A DNA stretch of 57,982 bases from IMG/VR virus record IMGVR_UViG_3300045580_000309, positions 1 through 57,982 of that record; one strand, given 5' to 3'. The stretch is from a virus (Duplodnaviria; Caudoviricetes). Below, in pieces: positions 20,201-57,982 of this stretch. The notes beneath the pieces were generated by a model. That model searched no databases. It was not told where the DNA came from and saw nothing but the letters and a program-made list of their open reading frames with translations. The position numbers and the translations under genes were made by a program. Numbering within the stretch: position 1 is the stretch's first letter; each line of letters begins with the position of its first letter.

Positions 20201-23200
20201 TGTAGCAGTCGCCGTAGCGGATGCGCTTGCCGTTGGTGTGGCAGTAGATGTAGCAGTCGCAGTTGGTGTAGCAGTTGCACTTGCTGTCGCAGTCGCCGTT
20301 GGTGTGGCGGTCGCCGTAGATGTTACTGAGGGAGTTACAGAGGCTGTCGCAGTCGCCGTTGGTGTGGCAGTTGCACTTGCTGTTGCAGTATTAGTGGGAT
20401 TTGCAGTAATGGTTGCTGTTTGAGTGGGTGTTGCTGTAGAAGTGCTTGTGGCAGTCGGTGTTGCAGTTGCCGTAGCAGAGGCAGTTGCTGTGGCAGAAGC
20501 AGTTGCAGATGCTGTTGCTGTTGGTGTAGTAGTGCTAGTTGCAGTTGCTGTTGCAGACGGTGTTGCTGTTACTGTCGCAGTTGCAGAAGCAGTAGCAGTT
20601 GCTGTGGGTGTAGCGGTTGCGGTGGCACTTGCGGTGGCAGTCGCTGTAGGTGTAGCAGTTTCTGTTGCTGTTGCTGTTGGAGTTGCTGTTGCGGTTGCTG
20701 TAACCGATACGGTTGCTGTTGGAGTTGCCGTAGCAGAAGCAGTTGCAGACGGTGTTGCCGTTACTGTCGCTGTTGCAGAAGCAGTAGCAGATGGTGTAGC
20801 AGTCTCAGTTGCAGTCGCTGTGGGTGTAGCAGTTTGAGTTGAACCCGCAGTTGGAGTGGCTGTTGCTGTTGGTGTTGCTGTTGCCGTAGCAGAAGCAGTT
20901 GCCGTGGCAGAGGCAGTTGCAGACGGTGTAGCAGTTTCAGTTGCAGTTGCAGACGGTGTTGCCGTTGCCGTTGCAGAAGCAGTTGCCGTTGCAGAAGCAG
21001 TTGCAGACGGTGTAGCAGTTTCAGTTGCAGTTGCTGTGGGTGTTGCTGTTGCTGTGGGTGTTGCTGTAGCCGTAGGTGTGGCTGTTGCTGTTGCAGAAGT
21101 GGTCGGTGTCGGCGTAGCGGTTCTTGTTGCAGTTTCTGTAGGCTTTGCAGTTGAAGTGGCAGTTGCCGTTGGAGTTGCTGTTTGAGTTGCTTTAGCAGAA
21201 GTAGTAGCAGTCGCTGTTGGTGTAGGAGTTGCAGTTACAGTTGCAGTTGCAGTTTCCGTAGGTGTTGCTGTGGGTGTTGCAGTCGTGGTTGCCGTTGCAG
21301 AAGCAGTTGCAGACGGTGTAGCAGTTTCAGTTGCAGTCGCCGTGGGTGTAGCGGTTTGAGTAGATACTGCCGTTGGTGTTGCAGTTGGAGTAGCAGTTGC
21401 CGAGGCCGTTGCTGTAGGTGTGGCTGTTGCTGTGGGTGTTGCAGTCGAAGTTGCTGTTGCAGACGGAGTTGCAGTCGCTGTTGCTGTTGCAGAAGCGGTT
21501 GCTGTGGCAGAGGCAGTTGCTGTTGCAGACGGAGTTGCAGTCGCTGTTGCTGTTGCAGAAGCGGTTGCTGTGGGTGTTGCTGTCGCTGTAGATGTAGCAG
21601 TCGCTGTTGGTGTAGCGGTTGATGTTGCTGTTGGAGAAGGAGTGGGTGTTGGTGTTGCTGTTGCAGTTGCTGTAAGCGATACTGTTGCCGTTGGTGTTGC
21701 TGTTGCGCTTGCCGTTGCAGTTTCTGTTGGAGTTGGTGTTACAGTAACACAGACTTCATTGAATCCATCGTACAAGCAAGGTGCCGGTGGAGGTGGACAC
21801 TCGTAGTCTGCACAAGTGCGGTCGAATCTTCCTTCACCGTAAGACTCATCGCCAGTCCATGTATAGCAATAGATAGTTGTTCCTGCGGTCAACGCCGCAC
21901 CTATTGCCAAACCAAGACATTCGCCTGCACTCTTTGCTTCTCCTACACACAGATAGGTTTGATTTTCTTGACCGCAATTTATACACACCAAGCACGGAGC
22001 GGTTGGAGAATTTTGCGATGGAGTGGGTGACGGGGTTGCCGTTGTGGTTGCTGTTGCGGTTGGTGTGGCAGTAGTAGTTGCTGTTGCTGTTGGAGTAGCA
22101 GTCGCAGTTGCCGTAGGTGTTGCTGTTGCGGTTGCTGTGGCAGAGGCAGTTGCCGTTGCAGAAGCAGTTGCCGTAGGTGTTGCTGTTGCGGTTGCTGTGG
22201 CAGAGGCAGTTGCTGTTGGTGTTGCAGTTGAAGTTGCAGTTGCTGTTGGTGTTGCAGTCGAAGTTGCAGTTGCCGTTGGAGTAGCGGTTGCCGAGGCCGT
22301 TGCTGTTGGTGTAGCGGTTCGTGTTGCTGTGGCAGAAGCGGTTGCTGTGGGTGTAGCGGTTGCAGTCGCAGTAGCAGAAGCAGTTGCCGTAGCAGTAGCA
22401 GAAGCAGTTGCAGACGGTGTTGCAGTCGAAGTTGCAGTCGCCGTGGGTGTAGCGGTTTGAGTAGATACTGCCGTTGGTGTTGCAGTTGGTGTTCCTGTTA
22501 CAGTAGCAGTCGCTGTGGGTGTAGCAGTAGCCGTCGCAGATGCTGTTGCTGTTGCAGATGCTGTTGCTGTGACAGAAACTGTCGGAGTTGGGGTTGCAGT
22601 AGATGTGGCAGTCGCTGTGGGTGTAGCGGTTTGAGTAGATACTGCTGTTGGAGTTGCCGTTGGAGTTGCAGTAGCAGACGCAGTTGCAGATGGTGTAGCG
22701 GTAGAAGTACTTGTAGCAGTCGGTGTTGCAGTTGCTGTGGCAGAGGCAGTTGCTGTTGCTGTGGCAGAGGCAGTTGCAGTTGCTGTGGCAGAGGCAGTTG
22801 CTGTTGCTGTTGCAGAGGCAGTTGCTGTTGCTGTTGCAGTCGCTGTTGGTGTTGCTGTAGCCGTAGGTGTTGCAGTTGCTGTTGCTGTGGCAGAATTAGT
22901 TGGAGACGGCGTAGCGGTTCTTGTTGCAGTTTCTGTAGGCTTTGCAGTTGAAGTGGCAGTTGCCGTTGGAGTTGCTGTTTGAGTTGCTTTAGCAGAAGTA
23001 GTAGCAGTCGCTGTTGGTGTAGGAGTTGCCGTAGATGTGGCAGTTGCCGTTGCAGAAGCAGTTGCCGTTGCAGAAGCAGTTGCAGTAGGTGTGGCAGTAT
23101 TCGTGGCAGTCGCCGTTGGTGTAGCAGTTGCTGTGGCAGAAGCAGTTGCAGACGGTGTAGCAGTAGCGGTAGCAGAGGCAGTCGCCGTAGCAGAGGCAGT

Positions 23201-26200
23201 TGCGGTAGCGGAGGTAGTTGGTGACGGTGTAGCGGTTCTTGTTGCAGTCGCTGATGGGGTTGCAGTTCCTGTTGCAGTTGCAGTTGGTGTTGCAGTCGAA
23301 GTTGCAGTCGCTGTGGGTGTAGCAGTTTGAGTAGATACTGCCGTTGGTGTTGCCGTTGGTGTTGCCGTAGAGGAGGCTGTTGCCGTGGGTGTAGCGGTTC
23401 GTGTTGCTGTGGCAGAGGCAGTTGCAGTTGCTGTGGCAGAAGCGGTAGCAGAAGCAGTTGCTGTTGCAGACGGTGTAGCAGTACCTGTAGCAGTTGCTGT
23501 CGGTGTTGCTGTTTTGGTTGCTGTTGCAGACGGTGTAGCAGTACCTGTAGCAGTTGCTGTCGGTGTTGCTGTTTTGGTTGCTGTGGCGGAAGCGGTTGCC
23601 GTCGGTGTTGCAGTTCCTGTTGCAGTTGCCGTTGGTGTAGCAGTCAGCGTAGGTGTGGCTGTAGCGGTAGCAGAAGCAGTTGCCGTTGGAGTTGCTGTTG
23701 CTGTGGCAGTTGCTGTTGCCACCGAACAAACTCTTCCTGCACACAATGAAGGAGTCTCGTCTGTTCCATTGAGCCTCGCCAATTCACACCAATCTGGCTG
23801 AGCATTTGAAGGGCAGCCAGGGCAGAGACAAATATCACAATCCCCTGTTCCGAACAGACCACAGCAATTCGGAGAGCCTGGACACAGTACTCTGAGAATA
23901 TCTCCACCAGTAAATGTTATCGTGATCGGTGGCCCATTGCACGCATCGGTGCTGCACGGATTGTTTGGTGTAATTATTCCACCATTTTGGGCGTCGTAGC
24001 CACAGCAGCCAGAACTTAGTACAATTTGCTGAACACAGCAATTACATCCTGCTCCCAAACACTCGCAGTTGTATGTGACCGACACATTGCAGGTTGCTAT
24101 CAATGATTGTTGGTCACTCGAATCACCTGATGTATTGTCCGTACTTATTCCAGCGTTTAATGCCCTGAACTGAAACTCTGGGCAGTCGGCGTTGCTGCGT
24201 TCCATATGGGTCCAGAAATAGACCCCCAAGTAATCATCGCTATTGTTACCGATTACTTTGCCATCAATGTCAGGGACATCTAAGGTTATTTCGTACTTTT
24301 TCCAGTAGTTCTCCAACTCCACAGGAACCAACGGAGAGTAAACTGGATCACTAGTACCAGAACCAACATTATAGTCTAGACCGTCACACCCCGATATACC
24401 GCTTGTATCGGTGGCTTCAAGTTCAATCCCGTAGTTCTCTGAACACAGACCTACGGTGTATACTGGCCGACAAGTTGCCGATTCTTCTTCTCCCTGATAG
24501 AATCCAACGCATACACTATCCACATAACTTTCGTCCATTGGAAGCGTACCAACACCACATCCTGTACATGGGAATGGGGTAGGAGTCACAGATGGTTGTG
24601 GGGTTGGGCATGGAGTTCTAGACGGACTTGGAGAAGGAACAATCCCACCACTACTTGTTGGAGTCGGAGAATTTGTAGGAGTCGGTGTAAGTGATGCTGT
24701 TACTGTAGCAGTTGCTGTCGGTGTTGCTGTTGCAGTTGTGGTTGCTGTTGCAGTAGCCGTCGCGGTTGGGGTAGCAGTAGCAGAAGCAGTTGCTGTTGGT
24801 GTCGCAGTAGAAGTTGCTGTGAGAGAAACTGTTGCCGTTGGTGTTGCAGTTGCAGTTGCAGAAGCAGTCGCGGTTGGTGTTTCAGCAGCAGTTGGTGTCG
24901 GTGTTGAGGTTGCTGTTGCAGAAGCAGTCGCTGAAGGTGTAGCGGTTTCTGTTGCGGTAAGTGTAGGTGTTGCCGTTGCTGTTGCCGTTGCCGAAGGTGT
25001 AGCGGTTTCGGTGGATGTAGGTGTAGGAGTTGCAGTTGCTGTAGCAGTAGCAGAAGCAGTTGCTGTGGGTGTGGCAGTCGAAGTTGCAGTCGCCGTGGGT
25101 GTGGCAGTTCCTGTTGCAGTCGCTGATGGAGTTGCCGTAGCAGAAGCAGTTGCCGTAGGTGTGGCAGTTGCAGAAGCAGTTGCAGATGGAGTCGCCGTTG
25201 CTGTTTCTGTTGCAGTCGCCGTAGGAACAGGTGTACTTGTTGCCGTAGGTGTAGCAGTAGCAGAAGCAGTCGCAGACGGTGTAGCAGTTGCTGTTGCTGT
25301 GGCGGTTGGACATGGCGCTCCAGAGCAAGTCACAAACTCAGCGATAAGTGTAGGAGTAAGACCACCTCCGTTGCAGGCTAGGCATAGGCAGCATCCTGCG
25401 GGATCGGTCGCTACTCCACCAGTTGAACACAACTGAGTTGGATTACCAAAACAAGTTGCTGCCGTTCCACCACAACCCTTGGCTTGAGCCTCTGCAAATG
25501 GAACTATAACTGTTCCGCGATCACAGGCATTAACATTCTCAGGTTCAAGTCCTGTTCCAATCACATAAATTGGAGCAGTATTGCCTGGATTAGTGCAGTC
25601 TACGCATCCTTCCCATCGCGCCCACAGTATAGTTTTCTCACTACATCTTGCACTAGCACCGCAAAGGCACTCGTATGCAATGACCAAATTACATCCTGGC
25701 GCCGCCGCTGCTCGGAGAGAGACAGTAGCGTTTGCAGCATCGGCATCAATGACTGATCCTGTTATGGGTTCGCGCTTTGAAAAGTTTGTGCCAAAGTCTT
25801 GCTTTAGGCCCACATAGATCAGATTGTTGTCTTCTGAACCATGAGAACCTTTTGCCCAGAACGAAAGCGTCGCTTTCTTGCCAGATAGAGTGTTTACGCC
25901 TGGAATTTTCTGATGCAGATTAAAGTAGGTACTGGTATCGGGTGTAACCCCGTCTGCGTGACCCTCAAACTCCACATAGTGCTTGCTGCCGTTGTTACCT
26001 ACTACCGTAGAACTGCGAGGATTAAACTCTGTTTGTCGTACACCACCGTAAACCGTTGCTCGTGTATCGTATGAGGTTTCCCATACCCAACGATCAGCGG
26101 TGTGTCGTGTGCAGCATCCTAAAAACTCTTTGCCTCTTTGCCAAACTGCAAAGTTTCCGTTGATGATGTGATTCTTTACCTTGCGTTCGTAAGAAGCATC

Positions 26201-27082
26201 ACAGCAAGCACCTTCAATATCCGCAGGTGAAGTGGAAAATGCTCTGATTAGAAATCTAACTTTGGTGTACGGTTCTCTTGGGTCCAGATCAGAAGAAAAT
26301 ACGCTGCCCGCGGCGATATCAGAACCTGCTTGTAGATCGGTGGAAGTGTATGTGCCTATGGAGTCTGTGAATCTCTCGATACCAAACAATGTTTTCTGAT
26401 CCATGTTTGGTACGCGAAACACGGTGGGATCATCCGAAACTTCATTAAACAGATATCCAATCTTCTGAAACAGATCAGGATAGTCACCTGTCAGATACGA
26501 AGAGCCGTCGCAGAGCAACCATCCTGCAATATCATCGTATGGAATAGCGCCCGCTTGTCGAGCGTAAGGCTTAATCGTACCAACAGGAACAATGCTGCTG
26601 ATATCAACATTGCAGTCAGCATCGTATGTGTATCCAAGATAGTTGGTAACAACACCAGTAGTGCTAGTTTTTGCAACCAAGACTGCCTTGATTACTGAAG
26701 ATACACCATTAGGGACAGTTCTAGTAATTCTTCCTGCAACGGCATTCGATAGAAAGTACACTTCACCTGGCACAAGATACGGTGTAGTGATGCCGTTAAT
26801 TTCACCGCCTAGCACAACATCGTAGTACACAACATTGTCAGGAGCATCGCACGGAGGAGTCTGTAGTTCCACTACACCCAATGCTTCTGCTGTTTCTATT
26901 GAAGACGCAATGGCTTTTACCCAAGTTTGGGTTGCGTCATCCCACTTAACAACCGCTCCAGTAAAGAACGGACTTGAACCACTAGGTCCAATGTCCTCTG
27001 CTGGCCCAGTTATACCTCGCAGACGAACGCTGCGTCCACCCAATGAGGTATCGTATAGGATGCCGTTTGCGCTTTTACCCAT
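17288..27082 (-). CDS. Giant modular virion adhesin (3264 aa): shared N-terminal domain, tail collar, split CBM-like scaffold, Cys-rich knobs, Thr/Ala/Pro stalks, C-terminal GH56-like domain
   Basis: Tail-collar motif PVGTI...GWLLCDGSSY...YPDLF..IG...FRVPNM; NGNFAVWQRG...ADRW...TLSFWAKG...VQLE...CQRFYE scaffold; low-complexity blocks; C-terminal DWE/GWYGLP/PSLY/DGVVFW motifs. Confidence 0.8.
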   Translation of the reverse strand: MGKSANGILYDTSLGGRSVRLRGITGPAEDIGPSGSSPFFTGAVVKWDDATQTWVKAIASSIETAEALGVVELQTPPCDAPDNVVYYDVVLGGEINGITTPYLVPGEVYFLSNAVAGRITRTVPNGVSSVIKAVLVAKTSTTGVVTNYLGYTYDADCNVDISSIVPVGTIKPYARQAGAIPYDDIAGWLLCDGSSYLTGDYPDLFQKIGYLFNEVSDDPTVFRVPNMDQKTLFGIERFTDSIGTYTSTDLQAGSDIAAGSVFSSDLDPREPYTKVRFLIRAFSTSPADIEGACCDASYERKVKNHIINGNFAVWQRGKEFLGCCTRHTADRWVWETSYDTRATVYGGVRQTEFNPRSSTVVGNNGSKHYVEFEGHADGVTPDTSTYFNLHQKIPGVNTLSGKKATLSFWAKGSHGSEDNNLIYVGLKQDFGTNFSKREPITGSVIDADAANATVSLRAAAAPGCNLVIAYECLCGASARCSEKTILWARWEGCVDCTNPGNTAPIYVIGTGLEPENVNACDRGTVIVPFAEAQAKGCGGTAATCFGNPTQLCSTGGVATDPAGCCLCLACNGGGLTPTLIAEFVTCSGAPCPTATATATATPSATASATATPTATSTPVPTATATETATATPSATASATATPTATASATATPSATATGTATPTATATSTATPTATASATATATATPTPTSTETATPSATATATATPTLTATETATPSATASATATSTPTPTAAETPTATASATATATPTATVSLTATSTATPTATASATATPTATATATATTTATATPTATATVTASLTPTPTNSPTPTSSGGIVPSPSPSRTPCPTPQPSVTPTPFPCTGCGVGTLPMDESYVDSVCVGFYQGEEESATCRPVYTVGLCSENYGIELEATDTSGISGCDGLDYNVGSGTSDPVYSPLVPVELENYWKKYEITLDVPDIDGKVIGNNSDDYLGVYFWTHMERSNADCPEFQFRALNAGISTDNTSGDSSDQQSLIATCNVSVTYNCECLGAGCNCCVQQIVLSSGCCGYDAQNGGIITPNNPCSTDACNGPPITITFTGGDILRVLCPGSPNCCGLFGTGDCDICLCPGCPSNAQPDWCELARLNGTDETPSLCAGRVCSVATATATATATPTATASATATATPTLTATPTATATGTATPTATASATATKTATPTATATGTATPSATATKTATPTATATGTATPSATATASATASATATATASATATRTATPTATASSTATPTATPTAVSTQTATPTATATSTATPTATATGTATPSATATRTATPSPTTSATATASATATASATATATPSATASATATATPTATATNTATPTATASATATASATATATSTATPTPTATATTSAKATQTATPTATATSTAKPTETATRTATPSPTNSATATATATPTATATPTATATATATASATATATASATATATASATATATASATATATPTATSTSTATPSATASATATPTATPTAVSTQTATPTATATSTATPTPTVSVTATASATATASATATATPTATATVTGTPTATPTAVSTQTATPTATATSTATPSATASATATATASATATATATPTATASATATRTATPTATASATATPTATATSTATPTATATSTATPTATASATATATATPTATASATATASATATATATPTATATATPTATATTTATPTATATTTATPSPTPSQNSPTAPCLVCINCGQENQTYLCVGEAKSAGECLGLAIGAALTAGTTIYCYTWTGDESYGEGRFDRTCADYECPPPPAPCLYDGFNEVCVTVTPTPTETATASATATPTATVSLTATATATPTPTPSPTATSTATPTATATSTATATPTATASATATATATPSATATASATATASATATATATPSATATSTATPTATATPTATASATATPTATPTAVSTQTATPTATATETATPSATASATATTTATPTATPTETATATVTATPTPTATATTSAKATQTATPTATATSTAKPTETATRTATPTPTTSATATATPTATATPTATATPTATATETATPSATASATATASATATATPSATATETATPSATASATATASATATATPTATATPTAGSTQTATPTATATETATPSATASATATVTATPSATASATATPTATVSVTATATATPTATATETATPTATATASATATATPTATATASATATVTATPSATATATSTTTPTATASATASATATASATATATPTATSTSTATPTQTATITANPTNTATASATATPTATATASVTPSVTSTATATPTATATASATATPTATATSTATPTASASATATATPTATATATPTATATPTATSSPVTTATATGTATPSATPSVTVTPSVTKTTTPTPSITPSITPTMTVTASPRVVPPNLAPCLGAWEAFSYTGVVSLTSVQLEESAEASPFVYEDYNKTLEKCQRFYETGTATIAVVTDGTDMAPAAFKTVQMKRTKRNKSDIFVTVDETSGGIDLATAEVGYSDTRKFTVQVNTTGGIIGLHKLKLRWVADSELPLYNNLQLDEQGEVGRTTVVCDSETACTLAESCKANADAPSCVPGYFPQRSFVENGAFPTSFKVFFSEIPSSEVDSEFATELGDTWGGLCHYFYENSVETWPNVSDDKSRYYMLVTGPRFDTNGSAVDNDPNCPLASDGTGRVWAPGAAYSGANANKSFRGRWGWGMPDGSSNLQDARTVSDFSLTNLDFETKTFEALAPNYFNYGWANFYDWEYRGCSGPPQIAGPCPGALRQDPMLSESVNYIYARLTGPTGQTIEVTYNSVVENSQQLVRFCQTAPVSDYGFSGTPVGWYGLPYIDNWSRPLIRDANNNPISLGYENLTDAQRDQLITYYYNRWLPLFGTATGQADYTQPSLYNLYSSTVLGTGVPGNVNNGNPSAPYYSPFMSRGGRGGTPWNGASTIQTAWERNNYDKVKLSKLYPVPSYPAVGPMFYGAGHIISWGSEYTGWHYTTMCNPSCRGTTTESTSPSGVTGTTPGSCYEGDWRCWDVYMGIEDFCRTQLDPVLQNNGDGVVFWWSPTYSTKLATAQVSETISPAWPGPSGGGNAWWNSTTDINPDLTQWNIDHFPVEITGTNTDANGVLIRLKRNDTDVPVGSRIARWWNVIDNHPTEVKAEIDRLGMSNASITGWLNSFTTNPNTGQKWLVASRQQIYNARNGHRMFIKAYLLDGADPAAGGVSSPTGRLAGVGWYSPSLHRFLKVAWSKFALHYAKAAKQYAETRTYAAEWNEVTAFGGQVAFDAILEQIRLDPLNWIPDVGSM
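20000..21745 (-). repeat. Thr-X low-complexity coding repeat, arm 2 (~580 aa)
   Basis: (T-A/P/S/E)n such as TATPTATASATA; boundaries approximate. Confidence 0.95.
22015..23720 (-). repeat. Thr-X low-complexity coding repeat, arm 1 (~570 aa)
   Basis: Same composition; includes an exact 60-bp tandem duplication (23461-23520 = 23521-23580) and a 123-bp segment (22907-23029) identical to 21110-21232. Confidence 0.95.
24600..25310 (-). repeat. Thr-X low-complexity coding repeat, short block (~240 aa)
   Basis: TATPSATASATATPT-type repeats flanked by Cys-rich segments; boundaries approximate. Confidence 0.95.
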
Positions 27083-37476: not shown

Positions 37477-40400
37477 TTACACCACCCCTATTACTCTTAG
37501 GTCTTTAACTTTCGGAACAACAGTACCTGTGTTGCTGTACAGCACAATCTTGATGGCATATCTAGCAAACGGTGTGGCAAACTGCTGATACAACTTGGTG
37601 TATCCTGTAGACGGAACCGTGGACGGTGCGCCTGGATAGTAAACTTCTGGCAAACTGAACGAATATTCTGAGAATGTAACCTCGTCTGTTGCGGTTTGGT
37701 TCACTTGCAGGGGATTCATTTCCATCTTCATCCAGTTCAAGTCATCAAACGGAACATCCGAGTCTGGTGTTTGAATCTTTGCCCATACTTCAACTTTGGT
37801 TTTCACAATACCACCGTCTACGCCAACAATCTCGTAGTTTGGAAGATTGGCACTCAAATACACCTTTAGATCATCACATTCCAATCCGCTGTTCAGATCG
37901 ACTCTACGAGAAATGTAACGGCTAACGGGTCGCGCAGGATCGTCTACTTCGTACAGCGGTCGCGCAGAGAACTCTTCTGTGTAGTTGTCGGTGGCGTCAG
38001 GATCACCAATCAGGTTGTCAATGCAGATCATGCTCAACCGCTCGCTGTCAACGCAGGGAGAAAGGGTAGCATCGGTGTTGGTGAACTCCATTACAAGTTT
38101 ACTGTTGGCGCCCATAGTTACTGCTCTAGGTCTAAACGAGAAGTTTTCGTTTAGAGGAACGACTATTTCTGCCGATGTTGCTGTTTCTTTCACATACGCT
38201 GTAACTGTTCCTGTTTCAAACTTCAGCAACTGTGCTATGATCTTTGCGTTATCTGTCTCGAAGGTTTCTCCTGTTGCGAATCCTTCCACACCTGACACGG
38301 GATTGAACACGATTTGCAGAGGCTCCGTTGTTGTCTTGAACACGCAAGTATTCAAAGCAAACATCAGGTCTGCATTCTGATCTGCACTCCATGTGCTTGC
38401 GTTCTGTGACTTGAAGAACACACCTGCATACGGTTGCTGCGTGATTCTTGCTCCACCAGCACCCAATGCAGTTTCTCCCATTTCTGCAATGTAGCATTCA
38501 TACTCGTTGCTGTTGCTCATTACCACAATCGAATACTCGCCTGGAATCAAGTACACAGGTGAAGAGAACTTGAATCTAGTGTATGTTGCCTGATTGTTGA
38601 TATTGGGAGCGTCTGATCCATCAGATGCCAATGCTTCTGTTATGCTGACATCCTCTGCATTCATCAATACCTCTGCAAAGGGAAGTATCGCAGACGAGTG
38701 CGGATAGCCATTAACCGTTGGTCTGATTTGAACACGAACTGGCGGAGCAGATTCTCCAGTTGGCTTGTTCTTGAAGAACAAATCAACGCTGTGCAACCAT
38801 ACTCCGTTTGGATTCTTAGCAACATCTACCAAGAAGGTCTGTGCTAGTGGGTCTGCCCAACGGATGCTGCTAGTCGAATCTGTCTGAACTCTAGTAACCA
38901 CATCTCTTACTACACGATCTTCTGTCACAGTCTGTCGCGTGATCTTTGGAACGCGAGTAGAGACTATGGTATTTTCCTTAGTCTGTAGCAGTCCTTGAGC
39001 AAAGTAACTTGCATCTCCCGATGTATTGCTCTTTGAAAGATCGTTGGTTGGATCGTCTGTTAGTCTGAACTGTCTTTCGCCAGTCTTGAACACTCCGCCA
39101 GGCAGTCTAAACTCAATCTCTATTTCACCAGCCGAGTTGGTTCTAATAGGATTTGATGGAGTAATTGCGTTACCAACAGAGTCGTAGCAATACTTGTTTA
39201 CTAGGGTGTTATCAAAGAAAGCATAGAGAACTGTGTTTGGTTTCAGTCCCTTACCGACGATAGTGATGGTTCTTTCTCGGATGAAAGGTATCACACTAAC
39301 ATCGACAATTCTATCTCCAAGTTCTTTGGTAACGCGCTGCGGTGTAATGGTTAACTTTACACCCTCTCTAGTTTGCTTTCTGTCGATTGTTTCTGTTACT
39401 AGACTTGTGCGGGTAGTGGTTGTTTCTCTTCTTCTACGCATCACTCTATCCGGCGCGCGTCGAGAGTGAGGAGCATCCAAGAATCTACTGCTTGTCTTTT
39501 CTGCAAGCGTTTCTGTAGTTGAAGCGCGAACACCAGACCATGTGGTTTCCCAATCATTCCATTGGGTTCCAAATGCATTTTGCATTCCTAACCATGCGTC
39601 ATTTTCGCCTTCTAGATTGATGTTCACCGCAGGACGAGTATTTGTGTCTACCCAAGTATCGCTACTTGGAGCAAGGTTTACAGTTCCTAGCCAACTAACC
39701 ACATCGAACGGATTTACGCTGATTGCTCTGCTTGCCAGCGGTTGTACAATGTAGCGATTTGGAGCAGAATCATCGTAAGCCAGGGTAACTACACCATCGG
39801 GTGAAACGCTAAAGTTTGTGTTACCTGTTAGATTGGGAACGAAAGCAACATTCTTGGTTGCAAATCGTGGGCGAAGATGCCCATTTGCAAAATCCATAGA
39901 GCATGAGTAATACGGACTGAATACATTGCCAACTCCGTGTCCCTTAAAGTTGTCAACGAAGATTCCATTCTTGATTCTCTCTGCTCCTCCAAGAGCAGGA
40001 TCAGGAATAGAAAGTTCTGCTGCTTCTTTCTCTAGCAAAGTGAGTGTGGTGTAGTACTCTACCCGTTCGATACGCTTTTCTAGTTTGGCGATATCGCTCA
40101 TGGTGTATCGCTTGTTGTCAATGTAATCCACCGTTACATCTTCTGGACCAAAGGTGTACTGAGGAAGCAAAATGTTGTAGAGAGACATTGACTCAGGAAC
40201 ATCCTTTGGAGACTCAGGGCGAATGCTCGGAATACCCGAAACAATATCGAATGTTCTGTTCTTGAGCAGAACCAGTTTGTCTCTTCTAGAAGTATAGAAC
40301 TGATATGTTATGGTTGGTCGTATTCCACTTGCTCCCAATCTAGGCAGAATGGTTGCAGAGTCTCCGCGTTGAGCAGCAGGAACCATGTTTCCGTTACTTT

Positions 40401-43400
40401 CTGCAATCAGCGAGTTGTCTCGGAATGGGCAGTCTGTATCCAATGCGTGTGGTCTGTTTGTTGTGCCTGGAATTGTAGGATCAACGGTTTCGACCGACTC
40501 AGCAATAGCATACGCAACTCTGGCTGGAGTGCAGTTTTCTCTAGAAGGTCTGTAGTCGATGCAGTTTCTTAGTTCGTATGTTGAACCGTAAACTGGACTA
40601 GTATACAGCGGAATGTCTTCGTACTCGTTAAAGAACGGATGATGGTCTTCGTGAGTGTATGAGTTTATCGTGAATGGTCCGCTTCCGCTGTGCTTGAAGA
40701 ACTTGAAGCGCACAAACAGAGTGTAATCAACAAATCCGCCAGAGTTTCTAAAGAGATTTGGTAGTTCTGTCTTTAGTTTTCTGAGTGTTGCTTTGCTTAT
40801 TACTATCTTTCCGTGGTCATAGAAGTTGTCGGTTGCCCCACTTATAGACTCGAAGTATGCCGTGATGTCTCGCTTTCCGTTGTGAACCATACCAGTAGTA
40901 TCGTTCACCGTGTTGTCCCAAGCAAGAACCTCATCAACCGAGATGATATCTGAGAATCCTAGACTAGTGATATACTGTTCTGGCAAAGAACTACCGTTGA
41001 AACCATTCTGATTATTGGTGTCATCGTCGTCGCCTGTCCAATCGTTCCAAACATTAGTTCCTTCCGAGAATCCGTCTTCTACATTGAAAGGATCGAACGA
41101 GGTGCTGTTGTTTTGAGCAAACAGTCCGTCCCAGTTTTGTAGTGGAACGCGGAAGTATCCGTCCGAGTCAAAGTACTTTTCCCATTCTTCCTTGTACTGA
41201 TATTCGTTTACTGTAGTTGCCGTTTTCTTTCTGAAGTTTGTAGTTGTTACTCCAGTTCCAACGCTCTGGCAGCGCACGGGTGCCTCTAGGCTGAATGTTC
41301 CTGTGGGCGCTGCACCCTGATAGATCACATACATGGTCTTTCCATCTGAACTGGTTGCTGCCTGTATATCAGACGGTGGAATGTACTGGTTTGTGTTTGT
41401 GTTAAAGATCAGCAGATCGTTTAGCGTATCGACGCTTACATCGTAGTAGGTGCCTGCACCCAATGCGGTGGACAGTTGCGAACTAAGACTAGTTGTGGTT
41501 CCACGGTTGAAGGTATACAGCGTTTTGTTTTCGCTTGCTGTGTTTGTGGATTGAGCATTTGCCACAACACCAGGCAGCGTAGTGGTATTGCAGAGAACTA
41601 CAAGAGTACCGTAGTTCTTCCATGTAAGGCCTGGTGTATTGATTGCTGCTGTTCCATCTCCTGCAATGCTCAGGGTGTTTGCAAATGTTTTCTTGCAGTC
41701 GTACTGCGTTGTTGCAAAGGCATCAATGCCCTTAACCGAGCATAGTGTTGGTAGATCAAACAAGGCGATATTTGCTTTGGGAGCAAACAGAATCGTATCG
41801 TAGTAGTAGATTGGTGTTTCTGAAGGTGGTTGGTTTGTTACTGGATCAATCACCTCGTACTTGATGGTTCCTCCAGTTCCTGCAGGACCGCCAGTCAGAG
41901 AGATATTGAAGAGTTCAATAGACCCTCCCATTTCATCTCCAGTAATTACCGTGTCTTCTACATTTGCATAGCGATAGCGGATTTGGTCAAAGTCTGTGAA
42001 GTATCTGCCTGGAATCACATCAACATCGCACAGGAACACATTAATATTGTCAGACTCTCCTGTATTTGTAACTCCTCGTACTCTTGCAGTACCGATCAAT
42101 ACATTTCCAGGACCAGTAATAGGATCGTTTGGTTCCAATCCGTCTGGGCGCAAGGTGTTCCACAACTCAACCTTTGGTAGAGAACTCCACGAAGGCAGCA
42201 CCAAACTATCGGGGCCTGTAACATCTCCCGTGATTGGCGCTTGGCAAATCACATAGTTTCCTATTGCGAATTGAACAGTTTCACCAACAGAAGACTCTGT
42301 ATCTCTTGCCTTGTCTACGGTCAGATACTTTGTGTTCTGATTGTCAAACTCGTATCCGTAGATGTAGGCCTTTCCAGTACCAACACCGATGGAGAGTTTG
42401 CTCTTGGCATCATTAACTGCCGCTCGTATCTCTTCAGAGGTTGGGTCTTGCTGCGGATTTGCACTAGCCCACTCGGGATGGAGTCTTCCCAATGAGTACT
42501 TTCCTGCAAATCTGCTGTCTGTGTAGGTTCCAACATGAGGAAACTGGGTCTTGTACAGTACTTTACTGCCTCCCTGTTGAGGCAATACTGTTCTAGGAGT
42601 CGATCCTTCAGTTGGAGTTATTACTGTATACAGAGATGGCTCTACATCTTCAACTGTCGGAATTTCTGAGGTGTAGAACGCGAGGCCTCCGCTTTGTGAA
42701 ACCGATTCTGATACGATGATATCGCCCTCTGCGGGAGTTCCCCAAAGAACATACAGCAAGGTTGTCCCGTAACCTTCTTCCTTGAAATCAATTTCACCTT
42801 GTCTTGCCAAGAAAGCGTCTGAGTCAGAAACAATACCCTTCCACGCCAATGCCCCGCCGCGGTATCCGTACACACTCAAATCCTGTGCATACGAATTCTG
42901 TGAACCTGCTCCGCCTGGAGAAGAAACTGTATACTGAACCGTATCAATTCCAACATACTGCTTGTAGATTGAGAACGGAGTTTCTTGCTGATTTACAGTC
43001 AATAGTTTGTCGGGATTCAGTCTTAGGATACAAACCTTTTCATCGTTGAAATACTCTTGAATATCGACTTCAAATGGCTTAACTGTGTACGATCCTGATT
43101 CGTCGTAGGTTCTTCTAGCAAGAGTTTCTTCCAACTCGCTATAGACGGGATACTTCACAGAATAGCGAACGACTCCATCGACAACTCGTGTTAGTTCGAT
43201 GAAGTTTTCTGTCTTGTACTGGTCAGAGTCTGACAAAGAATCAAGATTGGTAAACGGAATCTGATCCAGTATCAGATCAACTTTGTAGCGATCTGCGCCT
43301 GGTGCAGCGTAGTTGTACGATCCGTATGCAGGATCAAGAAGAGTTTTGTCGTCGTCTGCATTGATTACTTCGCGGTTAATGGTAAAGCCAACACGGACAG

Positions 43401-44370
43401 ACGGATACTGGAACAGTCTTACACCAGTAAGAGCATTCAGCACCGTTGAATCTGATCCAGTTACAAATGTCCATCCGATGCTGTTTGAATCTGGTCCTGG
43501 AGCAGAAGACCATTCTGCCTCGACAGCATCAGTTCCTTGCCAGTCTCCACCAAACACAGTACTTCCAAGTCTTGCTGACCTGTATAGTGCTTTGGTTTGA
43601 GAACTTGCTAGAACAAAAGCACCGTCCACATAGTAGATACCATCTCTGTTGGAAATGAGTTGTGCTTTTCCAAATGTTGCTATTGCTCTTTCTACTTCTG
43701 CTTCTGTGCCTTCTCCATCAACATCTTCTCCGAAGTTCTTGATGCGGCAGCGAATGTCCGTAGCAACCTCTTGGTTGGAGTCGTCCACCACAGAGTACAC
43801 GGTAAGCACTTTGCCAGCGCCTGTTACCAGTTCGTATAGGTCTTGTAGTGTGGAAACATTTTGCAATTCACCTGTTGATGGGTTTATCACGGTTGCAGTA
43901 TTCAGATACTCAACAAACAGCACATGGTAGTTGTCGGGATACAGACCGTCATTGGTTCCGTCTGCGTCTAGGTCCGTGTTTGCAGCGATTGATGCTTCAG
44001 CGTGCAACACCTTCATTTTGAGTTGTGGGGAACCGCTTACTCCACCAGTATTGGCAATAACCTTTCCAATAAACTTGGTAGGATCGACTGCAACCTGATC
44101 CGTGGTTTCCGTTCCAGTAATGGTTGTGTACACGCGAATAAAGTTTGAGTCGATCAGAGCCAACTGACCGTCAACAACAGGACTTCCATCCTTAAACACA
44201 TGATTGGCAAATCTACTGATTTGCTTCTGTAGAACCGTTTGCAGTTGAGTCAGTTCTCTTGCCTGTAGAGCGTATCCAGGCTTGAACAGCATCTTGATGA
44301 ACTTCTTTGCATCTGAGTAGTCATCGTAATACGGAAAGCCTGCAAATTGTGTTGGATCTATTTCTGCCAT
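37477..44370 (-). CDS. Large baseplate-associated structural protein (DUF4815/VrlC-like, 2297 aa)
   Basis: PYYDDY...LFKPGYALQARELTQLQT.LQ.QI, APGADRYK, LARRTYDESG.Y.V.PF, KRYTM.DI.KLEKRI..VEYYT.L.LLE, KNGIFVDNF, DPLAQTF; follows gp8 as in cyanophage-type genomes. Confidence 0.85.
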   Translation of the reverse strand: MAEIDPTQFAGFPYYDDYSDAKKFIKMLFKPGYALQARELTQLQTVLQKQISRFANHVFKDGSPVVDGQLALIDSNFIRVYTTITGTETTDQVAVDPTKFIGKVIANTGGVSGSPQLKMKVLHAEASIAANTDLDADGTNDGLYPDNYHVLFVEYLNTATVINPSTGELQNVSTLQDLYELVTGAGKVLTVYSVVDDSNQEVATDIRCRIKNFGEDVDGEGTEAEVERAIATFGKAQLISNRDGIYYVDGAFVLASSQTKALYRSARLGSTVFGGDWQGTDAVEAEWSSAPGPDSNSIGWTFVTGSDSTVLNALTGVRLFQYPSVRVGFTINREVINADDDKTLLDPAYGSYNYAAPGADRYKVDLILDQIPFTNLDSLSDSDQYKTENFIELTRVVDGVVRYSVKYPVYSELEETLARRTYDESGSYTVKPFEVDIQEYFNDEKVCILRLNPDKLLTVNQQETPFSIYKQYVGIDTVQYTVSSPGGAGSQNSYAQDLSVYGYRGGALAWKGIVSDSDAFLARQGEIDFKEEGYGTTLLYVLWGTPAEGDIIVSESVSQSGGLAFYTSEIPTVEDVEPSLYTVITPTEGSTPRTVLPQQGGSKVLYKTQFPHVGTYTDSRFAGKYSLGRLHPEWASANPQQDPTSEEIRAAVNDAKSKLSIGVGTGKAYIYGYEFDNQNTKYLTVDKARDTESSVGETVQFAIGNYVICQAPITGDVTGPDSLVLPSWSSLPKVELWNTLRPDGLEPNDPITGPGNVLIGTARVRGVTNTGESDNINVFLCDVDVIPGRYFTDFDQIRYRYANVEDTVITGDEMGGSIELFNISLTGGPAGTGGTIKYEVIDPVTNQPPSETPIYYYDTILFAPKANIALFDLPTLCSVKGIDAFATTQYDCKKTFANTLSIAGDGTAAINTPGLTWKNYGTLVVLCNTTTLPGVVANAQSTNTASENKTLYTFNRGTTTSLSSQLSTALGAGTYYDVSVDTLNDLLIFNTNTNQYIPPSDIQAATSSDGKTMYVIYQGAAPTGTFSLEAPVRCQSVGTGVTTTNFRKKTATTVNEYQYKEEWEKYFDSDGYFRVPLQNWDGLFAQNNSTSFDPFNVEDGFSEGTNVWNDWTGDDDDTNNQNGFNGSSLPEQYITSLGFSDIISVDEVLAWDNTVNDTTGMVHNGKRDITAYFESISGATDNFYDHGKIVISKATLRKLKTELPNLFRNSGGFVDYTLFVRFKFFKHSGSGPFTINSYTHEDHHPFFNEYEDIPLYTSPVYGSTYELRNCIDYRPSRENCTPARVAYAIAESVETVDPTIPGTTNRPHALDTDCPFRDNSLIAESNGNMVPAAQRGDSATILPRLGASGIRPTITYQFYTSRRDKLVLLKNRTFDIVSGIPSIRPESPKDVPESMSLYNILLPQYTFGPEDVTVDYIDNKRYTMSDIAKLEKRIERVEYYTTLTLLEKEAAELSIPDPALGGAERIKNGIFVDNFKGHGVGNVFSPYYSCSMDFANGHLRPRFATKNVAFVPNLTGNTNFSVSPDGVVTLAYDDSAPNRYIVQPLASRAISVNPFDVVSWLGTVNLAPSSDTWVDTNTRPAVNINLEGENDAWLGMQNAFGTQWNDWETTWSGVRASTTETLAEKTSSRFLDAPHSRRAPDRVMRRRRETTTTRTSLVTETIDRKQTREGVKLTITPQRVTKELGDRIVDVSVIPFIRERTITIVGKGLKPNTVLYAFFDNTLVNKYCYDSVGNAITPSNPIRTNSAGEIEIEFRLPGGVFKTGERQFRLTDDPTNDLSKSNTSGDASYFAQGLLQTKENTIVSTRVPKITRQTVTEDRVVRDVVTRVQTDSTSSIRWADPLAQTFLVDVAKNPNGVWLHSVDLFFKNKPTGESAPPVRVQIRPTVNGYPHSSAILPFAEVLMNAEDVSITEALASDGSDAPNINNQATYTRFKFSSPVYLIPGEYSIVVMSNSNEYECYIAEMGETALGAGGARITQQPYAGVFFKSQNASTWSADQNADLMFALNTCVFKTTTEPLQIVFNPVSGVEGFATGETFETDNAKIIAQLLKFETGTVTAYVKETATSAEIVVPLNENFSFRPRAVTMGANSKLVMEFTNTDATLSPCVDSERLSMICIDNLIGDPDATDNYTEEFSARPLYEVDDPARPVSRYISRRVDLNSGLECDDLKVYLSANLPNYEIVGVDGGIVKTKVEVWAKIQTPDSDVPFDDLNWMKMEMNPLQVNQTATDEVTFSEYSFSLPEVYYPGAPSTVPSTGYTKLYQQFATPFARYAIKIVLYSNTGTVVPKVKDLRVIGVV

Positions 44371-55179: not shown

Positions 55180-55446
55180 TTAACCCCTGCGTACTTGTCT
55201 TTCAAAGTTAATCATGTCTTGGTTGGTGTATACCGCACCAGTTTGCTTGGAAGCATTCGATACTGCTGATTTGAGTATATCTGCTGCTTCCTCGGATGTT
55301 CGTGCAGAAGCAACTCGCTCCCGTACTGCATCCGCTGCTTGTATGAGTTCTGTGGGTAGTGGGTTAGTTTCTGCCGCTTGCATCTTTTGTAAGATGCCAG
55401 CGATGTCTTTGGTTAGAGCATCAGGGTTTGAAAATGGGTTTGACAT
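55180..55446 (-). CDS. Hypothetical protein (88 aa)
   Basis: AAAGGA upstream; fits the operon spacing; helical composition. Confidence 0.65.
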   Translation of the reverse strand: MSNPFSNPDALTKDIAGILQKMQAAETNPLPTELIQAADAVRERVASARTSEEAADILKSAVSNASKQTGAVYTNQDMINFERQVRRG

Positions 55447-55458
55447 GGTATCCTTTCA

Positions 55459-56757
55459 TCATGCAGGACCAGCAATCAACAACGCAGCAACTTGTGGTTG
55501 TAGTCTTAGGTCTTTGTTGTTTCTACACAGAAATGCCTGTGCTTTTTTCCAATCGCTTTCTTTCTTGGATTTCATAGCGGTCTTGAACAGTTCAAAGAAC
55601 TCATAGAACAACTTGTCTACTCCTTTTTTCCAAGAAGTATCGGTATCGCTCTCGAACTCTTTCTTTAGTTCGTATTGCTGTTGCAATGCATCGTAGGCAG
55701 TTTTGACTACGCTTGGTGTGTTTAGTGCTGCTAATGGTAGCACTCTTTTCTCACAAGGAGTCTTCATCATGTACTGCATGGAAGCGATGACTCCCCAGCC
55801 ACTTTCTTTCAGAGATTGTAGTTGAAGCATCCATTGCTTTAGCGAAGCAGATTCTGCAACAGAACCGTCTTCGTCACCATCTACTCGTCTTGCGTGAGCG
55901 CGCCTACTGACGATTGTTCTTAGTTGTCCTTTCAGGACATTCCACGAGCCAGGATACATGGAAAGCATGGTTTCGATGCTTCCGTATCCACCTTCTGTGC
56001 TGTTTCCTGTGGAATCTGTTTCAACCGCGTAGTAGATTTCGTCTGCTTCATCTAGCCAGAAGCGAACTGTTGATTCACGATACTGCATTTCTCCAACCTC
56101 AATCAATGAGTCTGGAGTGTATTCTACGCTTTCCTTTACGCTCATTCCTCGTCTTAGTTCTTTGAACAAGGCTTGTGCATCGGACTCAGAAACTCCTTCG
56201 GGTATACCACCCATGAAGGCTTTGAAGTCGTTGTTGACAGCGGCAGCGCGCATCTTGCTCGCGGACATACCAACTACACCTTCAGCATCAGGATCGCGCT
56301 CACCTGCACTAACAATCTCAAACTCAAATGTGTAGCGTTTGTTGGGGTCTTTGTGTGTTAGGTACGGCTTGATTGCGTTTTTCATTTCTGCTACGCGATC
56401 TCCACCGACCACCATTATGACTTTCTTTACGCCAGAGTTCTGAAACTTGTTCAGAACATCAAACATGGTCTTTGCGCCAGCGTCGTCAACAACCTTTACC
56501 TTGCTGCCAAAGAACTTACGCAACCACTTAACTTTCAGACTAGGTGTTAGCGGATTCTTCTTTGCGTCATTTGTGCGCGAAGGATACAGATACGCTTCTG
56601 CTCCAGCCTTGTTTGCTGCTTCTGCTAATGCGTCTACTAATCGTTGGTGCCCAGAGGTAGGGGGTTGAAAACGACCGAAAGTGAATGCAACAGTTTTGCC
56701 CCCTAACGCTTCGTTTAGGGAACTGATGCTCTTTGCCTTCCAATCGCTGTACTTCAT
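55459..56757 (-). CDS. HIGH-motif nucleotidyltransferase (cytidylyltransferase-like superfamily) with unknown C-terminal region
   Basis: AFTFGRFQPPTSGH (HxGH-like), KNPL, MVVGGDRV, SAGERDPDAEGV.GMSASKMR. Confidence 0.85.
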   Translation of the reverse strand: MKYSDWKAKSISSLNEALGGKTVAFTFGRFQPPTSGHQRLVDALAEAANKAGAEAYLYPSRTNDAKKNPLTPSLKVKWLRKFFGSKVKVVDDAGAKTMFDVLNKFQNSGVKKVIMVVGGDRVAEMKNAIKPYLTHKDPNKRYTFEFEIVSAGERDPDAEGVVGMSASKMRAAAVNNDFKAFMGGIPEGVSESDAQALFKELRRGMSVKESVEYTPDSLIEVGEMQYRESTVRFWLDEADEIYYAVETDSTGNSTEGGYGSIETMLSMYPGSWNVLKGQLRTIVSRRAHARRVDGDEDGSVAESASLKQWMLQLQSLKESGWGVIASMQYMMKTPCEKRVLPLAALNTPSVVKTAYDALQQQYELKKEFESDTDTSWKKGVDKLFYEFFELFKTAMKSKKESDWKKAQAFLCRNNKDLRLQPQVAALLIAGPA

Positions 56758-56773
56758 GGCTGGATCACCTCCT
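56758..56773 (-). promoter_or_regulatory. Extended Shine-Dalgarno AGGAGGTGATCCAGCC, a 16-nt complement of the 16S rRNA 3' end
   Basis: Plus strand reads GGCTGGATCACCTCCT, the conserved bacterial 16S 3' terminus; abuts the ATG at 56757. Confidence 0.85.
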
Positions 56774-56802
56774 ACCCCCTACCTCGCAGGGCAGTCAAAC
56801 GA

Positions 56803-56925
56803 TTACTTGTTCCACGGGAACTTCTTCGATGCCCAATCCCAAAGTGGCTTGCCGATAAATGCACCAGCAACGAACACCACTACGGTATAAAAGAATGTAC
56901 CCAATGCGTTATGAATTGCTTCCAT
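56803..56925 (-). CDS. Small single-pass membrane peptide (40 aa)
   Basis: Manual translation MEAIHNALGTFFYTVVVFVAGAFIGKPLWDWASKKFPWNK*; AAGGAG upstream; CATAGATA motif at 56954-56961. Confidence 0.75.
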   Translation of the reverse strand: MEAIHNALGTFFYTVVVFVAGAFIGKPLWDWASKKFPWNK

Positions 56926-56956
56926 AAGTTGACTCTCCTTTCTAAGAGTGTAGTAT

Positions 56957-57982
56957 CTATGCCCAATTCTTTATCGCTGTGAAGTTCTGACGAGAGAACT
57001 CCAAGCGGTCTACCAGTTTGTAGACACCCTTTGCGGCAACTGCCACAAATCCTTCGGGATTCGCAACGCGGAATCCACTATCAGTTGGATAGAAAGCACC
57101 AACAGTCTTGACCTGATTCATCTTTCCGATGATGATGTTTTTGGCAACAGCAATCCGCTTGTGCAGATCAAATGCCTTCTTCAGACCGCTAGCCTGCGTT
57201 CGTATGCGCTGTATGAGTGCCTGGTCTGGTTTTGGTTGTGCTGCTGCAAACTGTATCAGGCCTGGCACCGATCCTTTGTCCACACCTGTACGGATACTGT
57301 TGTTGAAGTATCTCGTAAGTGTTTCTTTCATGGCGGAGTCCTTTTGTAAGTGATTTAAGGAATCCGTAACTGTTTTATCAGCCTTGAATGCCAGTATATC
57401 TGCCAGTAGTTTCTCCAGTTGATTTGATTCGGCAGCACCGAGAGTTGCCACACCAGTAGCGTCTACGAACGATGCGTCTTCTACCCAGGCCTTGCTGTTG
57501 CCCTTTAGAGAAGAAACATTCGGATTGAAAGACGCAGACAGATTCTTTAGATCGGTTCCTTTGTATTGTGTGTGGAACACTATACCGATTTGTGATTTGG
57601 CTATACGCTTTCCAAGATCGCTCTTGGTTGGTACAGCATACATGATGGTGTTTGGTTGGAAGGTATAGAATGACTCTCCATCTATGGTCTGAGTCTTAAG
57701 ATCGCCTGGTGTAAACATCAAATCACCTTGCAAGATTCCACTTATCCCTGCGTCCTTTAGAGCATCAAACGCAGCGTGTAACTTGGCAGCAACTCCTGAT
57801 CCACCGTGATTAGTGTCGATGTCTGAGTGCGAGTAGTTTACCTTTGGTGTCTTGTTGAATAGACTTTTGGTTGCAACAAAGAACTGCTTGGTCTGTGGGT
57901 CTTGCCCGCATATCACAGCAGGCGCACCGTCCCACTTTACAGACACAAAAGCGGCACCCTTGCCTCCACCGCCCAATGTTTT
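56957..57982 (-). CDS. Conserved T4-like phage protein (DUF6267-like) with ligase-type nucleotidyltransferase motifs; 5' end outside the window
   Basis: VKWDGAPA..CG, FFVATKS.FNK.PK, LQGDLMF, FQPNTI.YAVP, PEGFVA, KLVDRLEFS..NF; reading frame stays open to the window edge. Confidence 0.75.
   Translation of the reverse strand, partial: KTLGGGGKGAAFVSVKWDGAPAVICGQDPQTKQFFVATKSLFNKTPKVNYSHSDIDTNHGGSGVAAKLHAAFDALKDAGISGILQGDLMFTPGDLKTQTIDGESFYTFQPNTIMYAVPTKSDLGKRIAKSQIGIVFHTQYKGTDLKNLSASFNPNVSSLKGNSKAWVEDASFVDATGVATLGAAESNQLEKLLADILAFKADKTVTDSLNHLQKDSAMKETLTRYFNNSIRTGVDKGSVPGLIQFAAAQPKPDQALIQRIRTQASGLKKAFDLHKRIAVAKNIIIGKMNQVKTVGAFYPTDSGFRVANPEGFVAVAAKGVYKLVDRLEFSRQNFTAIKNWA

Follow-up and report, generated by a model that had tools for sequence, protein, structure and literature searches.

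The leader of a phage gene contains a perfect 16-nt complement of the 3′ end of bacterial 16S rRNA, placed directly against the start codon. Shine-Dalgarno (SD) sequences longer than ~8 nt are rare, and rreB/rreR, the only studied natural case of 16–17 nt, has a function that is still unknown. The locus raises the question whether the match is authentic, whether it is under selection beyond the SD core, and what such a sequence would do at the start of an ordinary gene. A literature search that covered text of the rreB paper, whose supplements may hold further cases, found no phage SD of at least 15 nt.

Results

Genomic context of the enzyme gene

The window (the whole stretch of DNA analysed, 57,982 b) is a linear, whole IMG/VR record with a CheckV completeness of 32% and a G+C content of 46.9%, and its long gene-like ORFs are carried on the minus strand. 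A domain search identified T4-type baseplate genes (gp5 OB and C-terminal repeat domains), and the baseplate wedge protein shows 36% identity to Methylophilales phage Melnitz and 34–35% identity to Pelagibacter phages. Two very large ORFs lie among the baseplate and tail genes: 17288–27082 (minus strand, 3,264 aa) and 37477–44370 (minus strand, 2,297 aa). A tRNA search of the window found none, and a host search in bacterial genomes found no close relative, the best matches having 40% identity to cyanobacterial or assorted MAG records.

The gene that follows the block encodes a 432-aa protein (Table 1) that matches Pfam PF01467 (E 1.4e-4) and the PHROG families phrog_3041 and phrog_395, "cytidyltransferase" (E 5e-54 and 7e-48), and that has homologues with 40–48% identity in cyanophage, Methylophilales phage Melnitz, and Pelagibacter phage HTVC008M. 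Its C-terminal half is variable among aligned relatives and has no assigned function. The N-terminus MKY(S/D)DWKAKS is kept in 6 aligned full-length proteins, and the start-proximal residues are MKY in 11 of the 12 distinct relatives described below and MNY in the twelfth (L118). The ATG is separated by 45 non-coding nt from the stop of a conserved 40-aa ORF. A scan of the minus strand from 55300 to 57982 revealed no sigma-70-like promoter, inspection of the 45-nt leader by eye revealed no T4 late-type TATAAATA, and the enzyme gene is probably inside a polycistronic message.

The first half of phrog_455 (764 positions) matches the DUF6267 protein encoded further upstream and its second half matches the nucleotidyltransferase, indicating that the two are probably one fused protein in some phages; in the window the two genes are separate, with the 40-aa membrane-like ORF in between. 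A K-W-D-G stretch in the DUF6267 protein resembles the ligase KxDG motif.

Table 1. Positions of the features discussed in the text (window coordinates unless a contig is named)
Feature	Position	Strand	Description
16-nt block AGGAGGTGATCCAGCC	56758..56773	−	Perfect complement of bacterial 16S 3′ end; abuts ATG
15-nt core GGAGGTGATCCAGCC	56758–56772	−	Conserved part of the 16-nt block
ATG start codon	56755..56757	−	U, G, and next two A predicted to pair with UUCA
Helix P1, 5′ strand GAGGUAGGGGGU	56774..56785	−	Exact reverse complement of 56654–56665; from RNAalifold and pair counts
Outer P1 (UGCCC)	56789..56793	−	95% of cells paired
Helix P2, 5′ strand AGCGAUUGGAAG	56737..56748	−	CDS +10..+21, codons 4–7
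3′ strand of P2, P1b, and P1	56648..56681	−	Continuous 34 nt; CDS +77..+110
432-aa protein gene	55459..56757	−	ATG at 56757–56755; N-terminal half is a cytidylyltransferase-like nucleotidyltransferase
40-aa hydrophobic ORF, conserved	56803..56925	−	Upstream of enzyme gene; ordinary SD AAAGGAG, spacing 9
DUF6267 gene	56957–57982	−	Upstream of enzyme gene and 40-aa ORF
HNH-family block	L063:831–846		Also in L028, L030, L031, L059, L062, L091, and L095

A perfect 16-nt complement of the 16S 3′ end

The plus strand at 56755–56790 reads CATGGCTGGATCACCTCCTACCCCCTACCTC, and the minus strand, from 56790 to 56755, reads GAGGT-AGGGGGT-AGGAGGTGATCCAGCC-ATG, exactly as given in an earlier note made from the letters of this DNA. 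The claim of that note that the 16 nt before the ATG are a perfect complement of the 16S 3′ end is borne out by the sequence and by a pattern search, which found the exact 16-mer once in the window. By our own arithmetic, ~3e-5 exact 16-mers are expected in 58 kb on both strands; a shuffle expectation of 0.41 covers matches with ≤3 mismatches only, not the exact 16-mer. The match is thus far beyond chance, in support of the note's view that the block is not just a strong ribosome-binding site.

As the 16S reference we used the bacterial SSU rRNA present in viral-collection contig L082, which may not equal the 16S of the host. The Rfam SSU model ends at position 6900 of L082 and the 16-mer lies at 6902–6917 on the opposite strand, so that the complement of the 16-mer is 2 nt from the 3′ end of the model. 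The SSU match at L082:6900–7949 spans model positions 1–1533 in only 1,050 nt; the 16S there has been shortened internally, or else the virus bin contains host DNA. Contigs L071 and L092 likewise end in 16S-like sequence.

The last 48–60 nt of the L082 rRNA fold into a terminal 10-bp hairpin, which we take to be helix 45 (1506–1529 in E. coli numbering). In this 16S end, the free tail lies opposite 11 letters of the block, AGGAGGTGATC, and the 3′ strand of the hairpin lies opposite the other 5, CAGCC. The earlier note had the complementarity reach into the 3′ strand of helix 45: the position of CAGCC opposite that strand in the 16S fold agrees with this, and CAGCC may pair there. GGAGG, complementary to the CCUCC core, is inside the 16-nt match and ends 10 nt before the ATG; the block thus has two properties of an SD sequence, complementarity to the anti-SD core and a position shortly upstream of a genuine start.

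Among the 37 ORF starts surveyed in the window, the enzyme-gene start has by far the strongest match to 16S (16 nt, duplex energy −33.5 kcal/mol). The other 36 match perfectly over 0–7 nt, with duplex energies between +0.8 and −14.6 kcal/mol; the remark that other genes here use short SDs accordingly holds at every one of them. The GGC variant in the block, said by the earlier note to constrain the host weakly, is a very weak constraint, since a 16S of the GGU type could also pair with the block here, by G:U.

Authenticity of the block

That the block is an artefact (a 16S primer or a chimeric assembly) or a chance match is extremely improbable. The concern was raised by the earlier note, since a common 16S reverse primer has this same 16-mer as its core. 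Five observations stand against it: the flanks of the block are ordinary phage sequence, whereas true 16S matches continue differently; an Rfam search at the site gave no family at E up to 1; contigs from independent runs bridge the junction without differences (X4, 2,883 nt, 56589–57400; X11, 162 nt, 56644–56805); the stretch is present in 20 public runs from 16 studies, mostly freshwater; and 12 distinct relatives carry the block in surrounding sequence that varies. The bridging contigs from other studies and the relatives dispose of the primer or chimera worry, and artefact and chance are excluded.

Two contigs from RNA libraries also bridge the leader: X16 (56657–56919) without differences, and X15 (56644–57122), from a relative with 38 differences, none of which, among the differences listed, is within 56727–56785. 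X15 and X16 (one contig in each of two RNA-library runs) each span both the 40-aa ORF and the leader, and transcription is likely rather than proven, because RNA libraries can contain DNA. X11 (DNA), X15, and X16 each begin or end in a 30-nt overlap at 56644–56673, in the 3′ strand of the helix described below; these contig ends are most likely an assembly junction from strain variation.

Conservation of the block among relatives

Full-length relatives were collected by protein searches blind to the leader (viral contigs L002–L008 and metagenome contigs L107–L118), and a 16-mer scan added L021, L032, and L083. The resulting alignment comprises 12 distinct sequences from −55 to +150, with protein identities to the window of 46–99%. 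That relatives keep only AGGAGG, which the earlier note listed among outcomes that would refute its reading, proves false, and the reading is not refuted on this count: 10 of the 12 distinct relatives have the 15-nt core GGAGGTGATCCAGCC without any change, and the full 16 nt are kept in the window and in 6 of the 12, the first A of the 16-mer being variable (A, G, T, or C). The block of L117 differs by a single A to C within CAGCC. In L118, the most distant of the relatives, it differs by three transitions. At two of these, G:U pairing with 16S would be retained; the third could pair with 16S of the GGU type but also improves a small local stem, and so is not readable as host tracking.

When L118 is set aside, the remaining 11 sequences have a single change in the 15 columns of the block (0.07 per column); the comparison rates are ~1.05–1.33 per column in unpaired leader and 1.08 in unpaired third-codon positions. 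The difference (0.07 versus ~1.1–1.3) indicates that the ten letters from GGAGG to the ATG, normally a free spacer, are under strong selection, and the alignment as a whole points to strong purifying selection on the 15-nt core in the relatives. Before the distant homologues from cultured phages (Methylophilales phage Melnitz, Pelagibacter phage HTVC008M) there is either an ordinary SD or no SD.

Other occurrences of the 16-mer in viral contigs

A scan of other viral contigs returned 86 matches to the 16-mer: 9 are in the enzyme-leader family, 9 are in a family at an HNH locus, 3 are true 16S ends, and ~23 are singletons or pairs, near a rough chance estimate. Matches of two further kinds, ~28 of "QGGDPA" type (e.g. 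L025:12899–12914) and 14 of "RGGDPA" type (e.g. L022:1762–1777), were rejected as leaders, being inside coding regions, where the 16-mer encodes Gly-Gly-Asp-Pro-Ala.

In the nine contigs of the HNH-locus family, an identical 16-mer lies in a non-coding spacer beside HNH-endonuclease genes. Behind it come ATA, then a perfect 6-bp hairpin (CCGCTG/CAGCGG), then a second SD, GGGAGGTGA, and finally the next gene's start; a frame of ~19 codons opens directly after the block. The block of this family occurs in two upstream and two downstream contexts, like a portable cassette, and has no match in cultured phages.

A predicted long-range fold with covariation support

The predicted fold of the leader and the first part of the coding region comprises, in order, helix P1, an 18-nt bulge holding the SD block, helix P1b, a 4-nt bulge, helix P2, and inner hairpins. 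P1 (5 + 12 bp) joins leader positions −36..−17 to CDS +93..+110 (QPPTSGH codons). In particular, leader GAGGTAGGGGGT (56785..56774) is the exact reverse complement of coding ACCCCCTACCTC (56665..56654), part of the QPPTSGH motif, and a variable 3-nt internal loop (56786–56788) parts outer P1 from main P1. P1b (5′ strand 56753–56756) consists of 4 bp, UGAA of AUGAA with UUCA of codons 30–31, and is invariant in all 12 sequences. P2 (12 bp) joins CDS +10..+21 to +77..+88 (TFGRF codons). The continuous 34-nt 3′ strand of the three helices lies in the codons for TFGRFQPPTSGH (T-F-G-R-F-Q-P-P-T-S-G-H), the region of the nucleotidyltransferase HxGH motif.

The 211-nt fold has an MFE of −79.2 kcal/mol, compared with −58.6 ± 4.2 kcal/mol for shuffled sequences, none of 200 being equally stable (z = −4.96). 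The same architecture was obtained by RNAalifold on 8 and on 12 sequences and in all 12 single-sequence folds, and 95.8% of cells across the 12 sequences are paired. Seven pairs are changed on both sides, versus 2.5 ± 1.1 in shuffles (0 of 500 reach 7) and 0–1 in slid controls, a signal drawn from few sequences, and of the three main-helix compensations, in P1 and P2, two come from L118 alone. Most clearly, P1 changes from G:C to U:A in L118 (ACC to ACA, synonymous) and, at its inner end, from U:A through U:G (L004, L113) to C:G (L109, L117; CAA to CAG); P2 changes from G:C to A:U in L118 (TTC to TTT). Synonymous changes in the 3′ strand are thus matched in the partner strand at all three places. 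Of the 12 pairs of P2, 1 is changed on both sides and 4 on one side, and 98.6% of cells are paired. A few cells speak against the fold by breaking a pair: an A:C in L021 and L110, another A:C shared by L109 and L113, and a single break in L117. Compensatory changes in the alignment support both P1 and P2.

The fold also bears on the two SD-like words upstream of the block, which the earlier note had read as additional SDs. Because these words pair with the coding region in a covarying helix, they appear to be a helix strand, the 5′ strand of P1, rather than ribosome sites.

No conserved complement of ≥6 nt to the loop holding the block was found within +600 nt of the mRNA, and a partner in trans is therefore the simplest explanation of the loop's conservation. 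A GGCUGGA at CDS +150 that is complementary to the loop was rejected as chance, being present there only in the window.

Energetics of the start region

The enzyme-gene start is predicted to be heavily structured. The MFE of a 170-nt segment is −69.6 at this start versus −39.9 ± 8.4 at 33 other starts. The predicted cost of opening is 4.1 kcal/mol for the whole block, 14.7 kcal/mol for −15..+13, and 23.2 kcal/mol for −20..+15; for −20..+15, the 33 other starts of the window need 9.2 ± 3.4 kcal/mol, and at most 17.7 kcal/mol. In the ensemble, the unpaired probability is 0.76 for the UGAUC part of the block and averages 0.28 for the GGAGG core. On sequestration the picture is mixed: the predictions pair part of GGAGG and the UG of the start codon, but the SD loop opens at the low cost given above for the block.

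A duplex of 11 bp with the 16S tail, leaving helix 45 intact, has a predicted energy of −17.4 kcal/mol; forming all 16 bp, which displaces the lower half of helix 45, gives −18.7 kcal/mol. Pairing of CAGCC with the helix 45 strand thus adds only about −1.3 kcal/mol in the secondary-structure model, and helix 45 invasion is predicted to be close to neutral, in a simple model that ignores ribosome tertiary structure. By the sum of opening and duplex energies, docking on the bulge would be favourable by about −13 kcal/mol. Opening −20..+15 costs more than the 11-bp duplex returns, so that efficient initiation does not follow from the simple sum. Taken together, the opening costs and duplex energies indicate that the enzyme gene joins the most closed start of the 34 with the strongest SD.

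Opening energy plus duplex energy was used in place of co-folding. Co-folds of the 170-nt mRNA gave no SD duplex with the 15-nt 16S tail, and with the 48-nt 16S end gave the duplex only with P1 lost. They say nothing either way, since the co-folding model treats any pairing with the P1-enclosed loop as a pseudoknot.

Discussion

From the observed sequence, conservation, fold, covariation, and outlier status of this start in the window, we infer 30S binding, an order of events, and a direction of the effect on expression. The reading we favour, to which we give about an even chance of being right, is that the block is a selected, extended SD that would serve as a high-affinity 30S docking site on a locked start, giving gated and probably low translation. 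The leader and the first 110 coding nt would form a long irregular helix that displays the SD in a single 18-nt bulge, with the UGAUCCA part most exposed. The 30S subunit would pair its 16S tail with the exposed part, maybe co-transcriptionally, before the 3′ strand has been made; the duplex would then grow to at least 11 bp, possibly 15; and the subunit would be held until P1b and P2 open and the AUG enters the P site. The nucleotidyltransferase would be translated in a gated and probably modest way, rather than expressed at a high level.

The main rival, unlikely in our judgement, is that the over-long SD works as a throttle or retention device like the rre sites, holding the 30S subunit or the 70S ribosome at the start, with the fold secondary; translation of the enzyme would then be very low, and the bound ribosome would shield the mRNA or trigger its decay. 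It is the main rival because the rreB/rreR SDs bind 30S strongly and translate weakly, with start-codon-dependent stability (PMC5711450). The anatomy described there is the same, a match of 16–17 nt reaching the first base of the start codon (PMC5711450), and the phage complementarity likewise leaves no unpaired spacer. A throttle by itself leaves unexplained both the covarying long-range helix around the site and the fact that this is the most structured start in the window, and the rre genes are 14–18-codon sORFs with GTG, unlike a 432-aa enzyme gene with ATG. The docking and throttle readings overlap: as the extended SD of rreB suppressed translation, the phage element, too, may throttle rather than enable.

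A processing or decay signal is improbable as the chief role of the helix. Cleavage by a nuclease specific for double strands, e.g. RNase III, would separate or inactivate the message, and the strong SD would be needed only for ribosomes to outcompete the nuclease. Stacked P1, P1b, and P2 span ~33 bp with two bulges on one strand, an irregular helix that resembles phage RNase III sites, and in two studies the ends of RNA-library contigs fall at 56644–56673, inside the 3′ strand. DNA contigs also break there, as in run X11, so the contig ends are a hint at most, and they fit strain-variation junctions; the 15 invariant nt that match 16S would have no explanation. We think it quite improbable that the bulge binds some other partner, a phage or host protein or a small RNA, with the 16S match beyond the SD core incidental. 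Conservation of a loop by itself names no partner, and T4-type repressors such as RegA bind start regions; however, RegA sites are (PMC3014915) A+U-rich and unstructured, whereas the bulge loop here is G+C-rich. Also against another partner are the ten further perfect 16S matches beyond GGAGG, for which our own arithmetic gives a chance of ~1e-6, and the lack of a conserved complement elsewhere in the mRNA.

CAGCC might even pair with 16S positions 1525–1529 by opening the base of helix 45, so that the mRNA–16S helix would reach the P-site codon with no spacer, a distinct "zero-spacer" mode of holding or capturing 30S. We consider this improbable. If true, the zero-spacer mode would be common to the alpha-proteobacterial rre mRNAs and the phage, which would hold host ribosomes on one message.

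The phage element is a second, independent, evolutionarily conserved case of an extended SD, and differs from rreB/rreR in being in a virus, before a normal enzyme gene, and inside a fold with covariation support. Being conserved and structured, it is notable as a natural test of the extent of mRNA pairing with the 16S 3′ end: it offers a natural system for the reach of that pairing, for the role of the base of helix 45, and for the trade-off between docking strength and mRNA structure. It also illustrates how SD-like words that look like extra ribosome sites close to a start can instead form one side of an mRNA helix.

Among known systems, the standby model of de Smit and van Duin is said to have a 30S subunit held at an accessible site beside a stable structure until this opens, and, in the compensation of SD strength and structure described by the same authors, a stronger SD reportedly makes up for what unfolding costs. 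In classical standby the site is a single-stranded flank without sequence specificity, whereas the phage holding site would be the sequence-specific SD itself. In the STAB-SD of Bacillus, an SD-like sequence binds 16S and in this way protects the mRNA; it lies far upstream and does not serve initiation, whereas the phage block abuts the start codon.

In phage T4, as in the T4-like phage here (by prediction), mRNA helices at the SD and AUG set the rate of initiation. Structured starts are inhibitory in e, soc, 49, and I-TevI and activating in 38 and 25; a local hairpin either hides the SD or AUG or brings the two closer together (PMC3014915). The phage here differs in that the SD is in the bulge of a helix whose other strand is ~100 nt into the coding region. 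A promoter-like site between the two strands, which would give a shortened, open transcript, was not found on the phage gene strand in 55300–57982.

In S. aureus, as in the phage, the SD helix is extended on the start-codon side, and this extended helix stiffens the mRNA and fixes the placement of the start codon (Kohl et al. 2026, PMC13009471). The S. aureus extension amounts to two extra bp, seen by cryo-EM and genome-wide; the phage extension amounts to 10 extra complementary nt, at one gene only.

The closest parallel is with rreB/rreR (Hahn et al. 2016, PMC5711450). Both there and in the phage, a perfect match of 16–17 nt runs up to the start codon, is conserved in its clade, and is partly base-paired in prediction with a short seed exposed. 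The 17-nt SD of rreB binds 30S strongly with only a short single-stranded seed, its extended SD suppressed translation, and artificial SDs of 8–10 nt lowered efficiency in E. coli (PMC5711450). From the text of that report, the rreB match also appears to enter ~3 nt into the helix 45 strand, and the phage match goes 2 nt deeper. The two differ in that the rre match extends 5′ of AGGAGG and the phage match only towards the start codon, in that the rre genes are chromosomal alpha-proteobacterial sORFs on small transcripts, and in that only the phage element sits in a covarying long-range leader–CDS helix. The phage site thus has the complementarity of at least 16 nt that marks rre sites, in the setting of a phage enzyme gene with ATG in place of an sORF with GTG on an alpha-proteobacterial chromosome, and so would work like an rre site without being a member of that family.
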